Positions 20,084-53,292 of a DNA stretch of 54,610 bases are shown here, piece by piece. The notes beneath the pieces are model-generated. The model worked only from the letters and a program-made list of their open reading frames with translations. It was not told the DNA's origin and did no database searches. The stretch lies in NCBI GenBank assembly GCA_035528235.1, contig DATKZB010000305.1, positions 1-54,610 of the forward strand, in the 5' to 3' direction. The first letter of the stretch is position 1. Each line of letters opens with the position of its first letter. The DNA comes from Phycisphaerae bacterium. GTDB lineage: Bacteria; Planctomycetota; Phycisphaerae; FEN-1346. Made by a program: the position numbers and the translations under genes.

Positions 20084-20953
20084 ATGGAGGCATTCTGGAC
20101 CGAGGCCGTGGCCGGATACACCGGGCCGCCCAAAGACCCCGCGACGGCGGCGGCGATCGCCGAGTCGCTCGGACGGGCCGCGGACGCCCAGGTCTACGCC
20201 GAGTCGGTCACGGCCGAGGGCGGCGGAATCCTGGCGCTCGCCCGGCGCGGCCAGGACAAGCGACTCCTGCTCGCCTGGCCGAAGGAAGCGGCCGGCGGCC
20301 TGCGGGTCACGTTCGCGCTCGGGGGCGAGCGCCGCCGCGCCACGTTGCCACCGGGCCCCGTCGACCTCGTTGACGGCCGCGCCGACGCCGCCAACGCCGA
20401 GACGCTCCGCCGGATCCTCGACTGGACGGCCCCGCGCCTGGTCGCCGGCCGACCGTCGGTCGGTCTGGGCGACCGGCTGGGCCTGGCCACGCCCGGGCAC
20501 GTCCGGGCCGTCCGGGGAACCGGGTACGTCCCCATGCTGGCCCAGCAGTCGATCCGCGAGATGACGCGGACCGGCCGCTCGCCCCAGACGGTCCTGAACG
20601 ACGCCACGTGGGGCGTCTTCCAGACGGGCTGGCGGACGGGGTTCGGCGCCGACGCCGACCACCTGAAGACGGCCGCCGACATCGACCGGTGCGCCGCGGC
20701 CGGGTTCACGTTCTACACGATCGACCCGGGCGACCACGTCGACCACACGGCCGACTCGGCCGATGCCGCGACGCTGGCCGGGGCGTTCGAGGCCCTGCCC
20801 TGGGCGGCCCTGGAGTCGACGTCCGCCGACGCCCGCCGCACGTTCCTCGCCCGGCGTGTGACGCTCGAGAGCGGCACGGCCCTGGTGCTGGACGAGACGG
20901 CGCTGCACCGGCACATCGGCCGGCACCTGGAGGCGTTCATGCGAGCAGGCTGA
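20084..20953 (+). pseudogene. uxaE: Tagaturonate/fructuronate epimerase (UxaE family), C-terminally truncated
   Basis: The GLGDRLGLATPGH...MLAQQSIREM...GFGADADHLK...FTFYTIDP motifs match the UxaE family as I recall it. Full-length UxaE is about 480 aa, but this ORF stops after about 290 aa, just before a large inverted repeat. No continuation is visible in any frame before iolB. Confidence 0.6.
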
Positions 20954-52594: not shown

Positions 52595-52623
52595 TTGCAT
52601 TGGCCCACCCCGGCCGATACAAT
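52595..52623 (+). promoter_or_regulatory. Sigma70-like promoter TTGCAT-N17-TACAAT for the tRNA cluster
   Basis: The -35 box is at 52595..52600 and the -10 box at 52618..52623, 15 nt upstream of tRNA-Lys. Confidence 0.65.
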
Positions 52624-52637
52624 ACCGGGCCGCAGAG

Positions 52638-52714
52638 GGGGGAGTAGCTCAGTCTGGTAGAGCAACGGCCTTTTAAGCCGTGGGCCGAGGGTTCGAATCC
52701 CTCCTCCCTCACCA
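52638..52714 (+). tRNA. tRNA-Lys (anticodon UUU)
   Basis: Cloverleaf folded by hand: acceptor gggggag/ctccctc, D-arm gctc..gagc, anticodon stem acggc/gccgt with loop CTTTTAA, T-arm gaggg-ttcgaat-ccctc, encoded CCA. Confidence 0.9.
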
Positions 52715-52740: not shown

Positions 52741-52815
52741 GGCCCCATCGTCCAGTGGTTAGGACACGGCCCTTTCAAGGCCGCGACACGGGTTCGAGTC
52801 CCGTTGGGGTCACCA
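52741..52815 (+). tRNA. tRNA-Glu (anticodon UUC)
   Basis: Acceptor ggcccca/tggggtc, anticodon stem cggcc/ggccg with loop CTTTCAA, T-arm acggg-ttcgagt-cccgt, encoded CCA. It is close to the E. coli tRNA-Glu layout. Confidence 0.9.
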
Positions 52816-52860
52816 AGAAGATCCTCGATTTCCGATCGGCGATTTTCGATTGGCCGTTTC

Positions 52861-53007
52861 GGATCTGAGATCTCAGATTGTCGATTGACGATCTTCGGCC
52901 GGCGGTCTCGGATCTGAGATTTCAGATTTTCGATTGGCGATCTTCGGTTGGTGGTCTTGGATCTGAGATTTCAGATTTTCGATTGGCGATCTTCGGTTGG
53001 TGGTCTT
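52861..53007. repeat. Three tandem 49-bp units (AT-rich, GATC-rich)
   Basis: Units lie at 52861..52909, 52910..52958 and 52959..53007. Units 2 and 3 are identical (ggatctgagatttcagattttcgattggcgatcttcggttggtggtctt). Unit 1 is diverged and contains the 16-nt palindrome atctgagatctcagat. A partial copy lies upstream at 52826..52860. Confidence 0.9.
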
Positions 53008-53040
53008 GGGTGCCGAGAAAGGCCCCGGCCCGGGCCATCC

Positions 53041-53124
53041 GAAATCTGAAGTCCGCAATCTGCAATCTGAAATCTGCAATCTGAGATCTGCAATCTGAGA
53101 TCTGCAATCTGCAATCTGAAATGC
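53041..53124. repeat. Twelve tandem heptamers G(C/A)(A/G)ATCT
   Basis: The series gaaatct gaagtcc gcaatct gcaatct gaaatct gcaatct gagatct gcaatct gagatct gcaatct gcaatct gaaatgc is the reverse complement of the agattt/cagattt motifs inside the 49-bp units. Confidence 0.9.
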
Positions 53125-53131
53125 CGTTTCT

Positions 53132-53206
53132 GGCCCCATCGTCCAGCGGTTAGGACACGGCCCTCTCAAGGCCGGGACACGGGTTCGAGTCCCGTTGGGG
53201 TCACCA
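53132..53206 (+). tRNA. tRNA-Glu (anticodon CUC)
   Basis: Same scaffold as 52741..52815, with anticodon loop CTCTCAA and a few substitutions; CCA is encoded. Confidence 0.9.
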
Positions 53207-53292
53207 CCATACACGGGGACTGCGGCCGGCGCCGCCGTCCCCTCTCTCTTCCCGCATCACGTGCCACGGATTGCTCGCAATCCGTGATAAAT

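Follow-up and report, generated by a model that had tools for sequence, protein, structure and literature searches.

Heptamer arrays in the spacer between two tRNA-Glu genes of a Phycisphaerae bacterium

Two tRNA-Glu genes of a Phycisphaerae bacterium (GenBank assembly GCA_035528235.1) are separated by a block of tandem and inverted repeats that is dense in GATC sites. What kind of element is this block, and does it bear on the tRNAs on either side of it? The initial annotation of the window, the whole 54,610-nt stretch of contig DATKZB010000305.1 that was analysed, offered three readings: a structured spacer RNA co-transcribed with the tRNAs, an iteron or methylation-sensitive array for protein binding, and the scar of an element that once targeted the tRNA.

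Anatomy and distribution of the heptamer arrays

The genome (68.9% G+C, 3.9 Mb in 403 contigs) carries three tRNA genes at this locus, and the ARAGORN coordinates of the two tRNA-Glu genes (Table 1) agree with the 316-bp spacer that had been reported. An Rfam search at a permissive E-value returned the same three tRNAs only; no rRNA was found at the spacer by Rfam, and the spacer itself gave sub-threshold microRNA noise. tRNA-Glu(CUC) is 96% identical to tRNA-Glu(UUC) (direct repeat D3), and the neighbours of the locus are rho and 2-oxoacid:ferredoxin oxidoreductase genes. Elsewhere in the window, at 20230-20326, ARAGORN called a 97-nt tRNA-Arg(CCT), which has no Rfam tRNA match at the gathering score and is probably a false call.

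The spacer had been described as AT-rich. This is true relative to the rest of the genome but not in absolute terms, as its G+C content is 49.7%; the 60-nt line from position 52921 has 41.7% G+C, where 42% had been counted. There are 11 GATC sites in the spacer against 1.02 expected from the genome-wide frequency, as in the earlier count of 11 against about one, and the AGATCT sites previously given as several number three (0.03 expected). Tandem Repeats Finder identified a 49-bp unit repeated 3.7 times with 87% matches and a 7-bp unit repeated 11.4 times. The three 49-bp tandem units of the initial annotation were thereby recovered, two of them identical and the third matching both at 42 of 49 positions, and so were its twelve heptamers of opposite polarity, which come to 13 by an in-phase parse. 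Because 49 is 7 x 7, the left half is, in phase from 52820, a single run of about 28 heptamers, and the 49-bp unit is itself seven heptamers. The spacer holds 28 + 13 = 41 units in total. The assembly behind this copy number was built from short reads and is fragmented (403 contigs), so that the number may be in error.

The block begins 4 nt past the CCA end of tRNA-Glu(UUC) and ends 5 nt before tRNA-Glu(CUC). It is a long imperfect inverted repeat, as had been noticed, with arms that are 72% complementary over 67 nt without gaps (inverted repeats I1-I8). The left arm, at 28 units, is far longer than the right arm, at 13, and part of it folds on itself. The GC palindrome reported near the centre is present, though at the position given in Table 1 and not at about 53022-53035. 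The units run head to tail without unique spacers, which rejects a CRISPR array, in keeping with the first description. No second copy of the 49-mer was found in the genome, and exact-match scans of a metagenome collection, using the tRNA/array junction and 30 nt of the 49-mer, gave no match. The 3' arm matched at least nine other genomic loci by blastn at 86-100% identity. The two identical 49-bp units appear to stem from a recent duplication. Several reading frames stay open through the heptamer arrays and yield spurious ORFs of 47-113 aa (one such peptide is QIADLRLQISDCR), which gene callers may label as hypothetical proteins.

Table 1. Coordinates of features at the tRNA locus (window positions) and of the armed PF05635 genes (contig:positions)
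Feature	Position	Strand	Description
Promoter-like motif TTGCAT-17 nt-TACAAT	52595-52623	+	Upstream of tRNA-Lys; found by eye
tRNA-Lys(UUU)	52638-52714	+	ARAGORN; Rfam tRNA model 75.4 bits
tRNA-Glu(UUC)	52741-52815	+	CCA end encoded; ARAGORN; Rfam 67.5 bits
Glu(UUC)-Glu(CUC) spacer	52816-53131		316 nt
5' arm	52820-53015	+	About 28 in-phase GATYNNN heptamers, starting GAT or GGT
5' arm unit variants		+	GATCTGA, GATTTCA, GATTTTC, GATTGGC, GATCTTC, GGTTGGT, GGTCTTG and others
49-bp repeat (Tandem Repeats Finder)	52827-53006		3.7 copies
49-bp higher-order unit (7 x 7)	52862-52910		Matches the other two at 42/49 positions
49-bp higher-order unit (7 x 7)	52911-52959		Identical to the next
49-bp higher-order unit (7 x 7)	52960-53008		Identical to the preceding
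Apical loop	53016-53035	+	GC-rich, 20 nt
Palindrome GGCCCGGGCC	53027-53036		Begins in loop, extends one base into 3' arm
3' arm	53036-53126	+	13 heptamers (A/G)ATCYG(A/C), reverse complement of GATY class
7-bp repeat (Tandem Repeats Finder)	53043-53122		11.4 copies
tRNA-Glu(CUC)	53132-53206	+	ARAGORN; Rfam 64.1 bits
Spurious array ORF	52873-53214	-	
Spurious array ORF	52878-53084	+	
PF05635 gene with arms	C276:9960-10545		
PF05635 gene with arms	C33:7192-7728		
PF05635 gene with arms	C255:8666-9329		
PF05635 gene with arms	C255:10668-11134		Arms GATTTCG / AATCCGA

The repeats of the spacer are members of a dispersed class. AATC/GATT arrays of period 7 with at least three units occur 45 times in the genome, compared to 0-2 times for unrelated control tetramers, and the same tetramer forms no arrays at period 6 or 8. 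The arrays are spread over at least 40 loci and their modal length is about 4-5 units. When arrays of at least four units are counted, AATC/GATT (34), AGGCT (19) and AATGAC (16) are the three commonest gene-less classes. To place the arrays relative to genes, genes were marked by a simple GC3-based ORF caller (2,937 ORFs, 84% coverage) and tRNAs by ARAGORN. In 28 of 39 intergenic arrays, 20 nt or less separated the outer edge from the boundary of a gene or tRNA (median 11 nt; 23 of these at 3' ends, the other 5 at 5' ends); the inner edge lay as close in one of the 39. The usual layout is a stop codon followed by (GATTTCG)n, a loop, (CGAAATC)n and the next gene, and the tRNA spacer obeys the same edge rule. 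The inverted-pair layout was also seen on contigs C6, C113, C123, C173, C255 and C289. A mobile hairpin of MITE or REP type is marked by fixed ends flanked by a target-site duplication, or by a cognate transposase (RAYT); in this class, several copies share the ends CCATTTCG...CGAAATGG, and no target duplication was seen.

The loop between heptamer arms often contains a GC-rich hairpin of REP type, GCGCGGCGGGTCCCCGCACCCGCCGCGC or a variant of it (C289:800-862, C123:4600-4680 and C188:5680-5760, and on C149, C209 and C258), so that the REP-type and heptamer families are two repeat families stacked within one intergenic region. Arrays also adjoin other tRNA genes. At C205:11316-11610, tRNA-Gln lies between an octamer array (CTCAGGTA) and a GAATGAC/GTCATTC hairpin, and at C196:36178-36297 a GATT-class array comes straight after tRNA-Tyr.

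The Lys-Glu(UUC)-Glu(CUC) cluster is conserved across the family, and the same array class fills the tRNA spacers of this cluster in several related genera at very different lengths. Ten genomes, including this one, have the Glu-Glu tandem, with spacers of 40-316 nt. In seven of these ten, an AATC-class array stops about 10 nt short of tRNA-Glu(CUC); one of the others has an octamer-class hairpin and two have no array. The Lys-Glu spacers of relatives are often filled by arrays as well. Three successive AATCYGM units were found in 19 of 22 genomes of the family (this one included), in none of five from the sister family and in 2 of 14 from other families of the class; the reversed pattern, used as a control, was found nowhere. 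Among the matches listed for species-representative genomes, more than 119 stretches of four AATCYGM units came from many phyla. The short Glu-Glu spacer of one relative (G010, locus L005) has a TTGGCT-17-TATAAT motif, and tRNA-Glu(CUC) may thus have a promoter of its own in that genome. The repeats belong to a common genome-wide class and the block is hypervariable in relatives, outcomes that the initial annotation had named as refuting it, and the block is not a device specific to this locus.

Folding, transcription and processing of the spacer RNA

An in-silico fold of the spacer, proposed in the initial annotation as a check, was run on both strands. The + strand, which is the tRNA-sense strand, folded at -140.5 kcal/mol compared to a shuffle mean of -108.6 kcal/mol (z = -6.5), with helices that run almost unbroken for more than 20 bp and with 21 G.U among its 124 pairs. 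The - strand folded at -109.3 kcal/mol, which makes the sense strand more stable by 31 kcal/mol. In the best ungapped register of the arms, 12 of the non-Watson-Crick positions were of G.U type and 3 of A.C type. This strand asymmetry fits, and weakly suggests, a constraint at the RNA level at this locus. When 19 tRNA spacers from relatives were included, however, the sense fold was the better one in only 12 of 20 tRNA spacers, with a mean difference of -2.8 kcal/mol. As the bias is not general among these spacers, its presence here could reflect mutation bias.

A consensus scan found no promoter-like or terminator-like site inside the spacer. Upstream of tRNA-Lys, a promoter-like motif (Table 1) ends 14 nt before the tRNA; it was missed by the consensus scan because its -35 hexamer matches at just 3 of 6 positions. 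We presume that this motif is the promoter of the Lys-Glu-Glu operon. Together with the lack of such sites in the spacer, it suggests that the three tRNAs are most likely made as one transcript. The signal scan, the 31 kcal/mol advantage of the sense fold and its 21 G.U pairs favour, of the three readings offered initially, the co-transcribed structured spacer RNA.

A path from this transcript to the mature tRNAs can be proposed from sequence and by analogy. The three tRNAs would be made as a single precursor from the promoter upstream of tRNA-Lys, in which the spacer RNA would make about 120 pairs in an imperfect hairpin, and the helices of this hairpin would be of sufficient length for RNase III. 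A gene for RNase III is present in the genome at C370:954-1325. A cut in the stem, by analogy with the 23S rRNA intervening sequence (IVS) of Coxiella, would separate the two tRNA-Glu precursors, whose ends would then be trimmed by RNase P and 3' nucleases. Array length would drift up and down by slipped-strand mispairing. We favour, at a probability of about 60%, the reading that the spacer is a gene-less, locally over-expanded heptamer-array hairpin that is presumably co-transcribed with the tRNAs and probably cut by RNase III. The two tRNAs and the giant heptamer hairpin between them are a clean and short substrate on which to ask whether hairpins of this kind serve as RNase III sites in stable-RNA precursors outside 23S rRNA. 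The hairpin may be tolerated by the cell rather than beneficial to it.

A stronger form of such tolerance would be that the block is neutral, either a simple repeat prone to slippage or a selfish hairpin, kept in a permissive spacer and without a role in tRNA maturation. Length at the same site is hypervariable in relatives, some of which have no array, and the two identical 49-bp units speak for a recent duplication. Heptamers are over-represented in many bacteria, and the cause proposed for this is polymerase slippage (PMC4692102). Slippage alone, however, leaves four features unexplained: the inverted pairing of the arrays, their exact abutment to gene ends (28 of 39), the restriction to few unit classes and to period 7, and the recurrence of the AATC class before tRNA-Glu(CUC) in several genera. 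We consider a purely neutral repeat rather unlikely.

PF05635 genes in heptamer arms, and the weaker readings

All four PF05635 genes of this genome lie inside inverted arrays of 7- or 8-nt units, with a different unit for each gene (GTGCCTAG, GGAGGCT, AATGACT and GATTTCG). Without their arms, the genes occupy C276:10113-10427, C33:7322-7633, C255:8845-9069 and C255:10758-11054. The ORF enclosed by the GATTTCG / AATCCGA arms matches PF05635 ('23S rRNA-intervening sequence protein') with E = 1.9e-13. In these cassettes the 5' array begins at the stop codon of the preceding gene or within it, and a few nt separate the 3' array from the start codon that follows. About 50 of the 57 PF05635 genes examined in relatives from the family and the class also have inverted arms. 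On a tree of the 57 proteins, arm class requires five changes, close to the minimum of four, compared to a mean of 23 changes when the arm-class labels were shuffled; none of 200 shuffles was as low as five. Arm class thus follows the protein tree, which may reflect either cognate specificity or the descent of whole cassettes. To our knowledge, the PF05635 family has remained without a known function since its discovery in rRNA intervening sequences.

In relatives, the units of the spacer itself are found around PF05635 genes. One such gene (locus L170) has GATTGCA/AATCTGC arms, which are the spacer's own units, and a subfamily (L164-L166) has GATTTCA/GATCTCA arms of 15-24 units with a 42-49-bp higher-order periodicity like that of the spacer. 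A tblastn search with this subfamily against the present assembly returned no orthologue. The coding sequences of the subfamily contain a short run of these heptamers (L164:1528-1562, L165:1760-1790 and L166:1529-1559, in genomes G021, G001 and G007), which encodes the conserved peptide HLKSEISDLKS, and the ORF could therefore pair with its own arms. In a further relative (G017, L160:1245-1848), tRNA-Glu(CUC) is followed by a terminator-like hairpin, an AGAGAGT/TCTACTC heptamer hairpin, TATAAT and a PF05635 gene, which adjoins the heptamer hairpin and is not enclosed by it.

These genes raise the alternative that the arrays are binding sites, in RNA or in DNA, for a cognate PF05635 pentamer, and that the spacer is a multivalent array served in trans. 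In this genome, the arm classes of three PF05635 genes out of four (AATC/GATT, AATGAC and AGGCT) are also the three commonest gene-less classes, an apparent match that amounts to a concrete binding hypothesis. Such binding would also account for the way in which arm class tracks the protein tree, although the same clustering is expected from the common descent of whole cassettes, and two distant clades of the proteins share the GATY class. The modal array of about 4-5 units is compatible with a pentamer, as the solved member of the family is a homopentamer (PMC4990558), and the relatives described above combine PF05635 genes with the units of the spacer. No PF05635 gene with GATCTGA/GATTTCA arms is present in this assembly, however. 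Among relatives, one genome (G004) has one array and no PF05635 gene, and another (G005) has 22 matches to three AATCYGM units and one gene. Putative binding by the pentamer is compatible with the data, although rather unlikely as the explanation of the spacer, and it can coexist with RNase III processing.

A broader proposal, to which we give tentative credit at less than even odds, is that heptamer-array hairpins and PF05635 proteins are one system that colonises transcript junctions (cistron boundaries, 23S rRNA helices and tRNA spacers), in which each subfamily recognises its own 7-nt unit and gene-less hairpins are served in trans. If this is true, the tRNA-spacer copy would be a direct analogue, in a tRNA precursor, of the rRNA intervening sequence.

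The GATC sites had suggested an iteron or methylation-sensitive array, that is, a GATC cluster for a Dam-type methylase and a methylation-sensitive protein, or the iterons of a replicon. The elevenfold excess of GATC invites this reading, and a homologue of a D12-class adenine methyltransferase is encoded at C52:79-675. Only 3 of the 45 arrays of the class contain GATC, however, and of the array-bearing homologous tRNA spacers of relatives nine of ten have none and the tenth has a single site. The 12,558 GATC sites of the genome are near the compositional expectation. No replication gene is found nearby (the neighbours being rho and the oxidoreductase), and the iterons of a replicon were rejected on the absence of a rep-like ORF and on the dispersal of the arrays. 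Since so few arrays hold GATC, the density at the spacer is due to the local unit variants GATCTGA and GATCTGC; it is a by-product of the repeat unit and no functional signal. A methylation or iteron function is thus highly improbable. For annotation, the lesson is that GATC-dense, AT-richer blocks of this kind are neither CRISPR arrays, origins nor methylation switches.

Equally remote is the scar of an integrase-type element that entered and duplicated tRNA-Glu: the 96% identity of the flanking genes is what a duplication would give, and the spacer is, loosely, the gene-less copy of a dispersed element class, but the second tRNA gene is complete and has a different anticodon, the UUC-CUC tandem is ancestral in the family (conserved in at least nine related genomes, with spacers down to 40 nt), no att-type duplication was seen, and the ORF scan of the spacer and of the last 4 kb of the window found no integrase or mobile-element ORF, as the initial annotation had also observed.

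Comparison with known systems

The gene-less heptamer-array hairpin that we favour resembles repeats described elsewhere, most closely the inverted GGGAATC pairs of Xanthomonas, then the ORF-bearing 23S rRNA intervening sequences, and after these the TAACTGA and STRR heptamers. In Xanthomonas (GGGAATC) and Nostoc (GGGGAYT), intergenic heptameric tandem repeats occur in inverted pairs (Rehm et al. 2015, PMC4692102). Tens to hundreds of arrays are dispersed between genes, and many form convergent pairs, with stem-loops of 70-75 pairs in Xanthomonas. They lie nearer to the end of the upstream ORF (mean 28 nt) than to the downstream ORF, and their length varies among close relatives (PMC4692102). 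The arrays studied here are alike in their 7-nt unit, dispersed copies, inverted pairs and intergenic position near the end of the upstream gene. In contrast to those repeats, the spacer has a different unit sequence that is not G-quadruplex-prone, and its block, in a tRNA operon, much exceeds them in length with 28 + 13 units. The repeats of that paper were not tied to PF05635 genes. TAACTGA direct repeats, found in Beggiatoaceae, Cyanobacteria and Bacteroidetes, mostly end just upstream of start codons, and one inverted pair has been reported (PMC4679880). These are likewise dispersed intergenic heptamer arrays, whereas inverted pairing is the rule for the class described here.

The second comparison is with intervening sequences. 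RNase III excises the 23S rRNA IVS of Coxiella burnetii, whose stem contains tandem heptamers in a copy number that differs from strain to strain (Warrier et al. 2016, PMC4990558). As in the ORF-bearing 23S rRNA IVSs of Coxiella burnetii and Leptospira, the terminal inverted repeats of the spacer form a long heptamer stem. Those elements lie within a stable-RNA transcript, in helix 45, with an S23p/PF05635 ORF in the loop (PMC4990558). The spacer differs in that it lies between two tRNAs and has no ORF, and its excision is a proposal. The defining site of a 23S rRNA IVS is helix 25 or helix 45 of that rRNA gene, and the spacer is not located there. Compared to the PF05635 cassettes, the spacer has the same arm architecture, unit classes and exact wedging between neighbouring genes; unlike them, it has a 20-nt loop without a gene, and its arms exceed the usual 4-5 units by a factor of 3-6. 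Cyanobacterial STRR heptamers, which are dispersed intergenic arrays too, are said to have been found, by Vioque in 1997, inside the RNase P RNA gene as well; such arrays can thus sit within stable-RNA genes.

We know of no established cause for the over-representation of heptamer tandem repeats in many bacteria. We class the spacer as a gene-less heptamer-array hairpin because it shows every feature of inverted heptamer pairs that was tested, lies outside the IVS location and lacks the ORF of the cassettes. It is a known kind of element and no new system. What sets it apart among such arrays is its size of 41 units and its site in a tRNA operon, and it offers a handle on the unexplained link between heptamers and PF05635.
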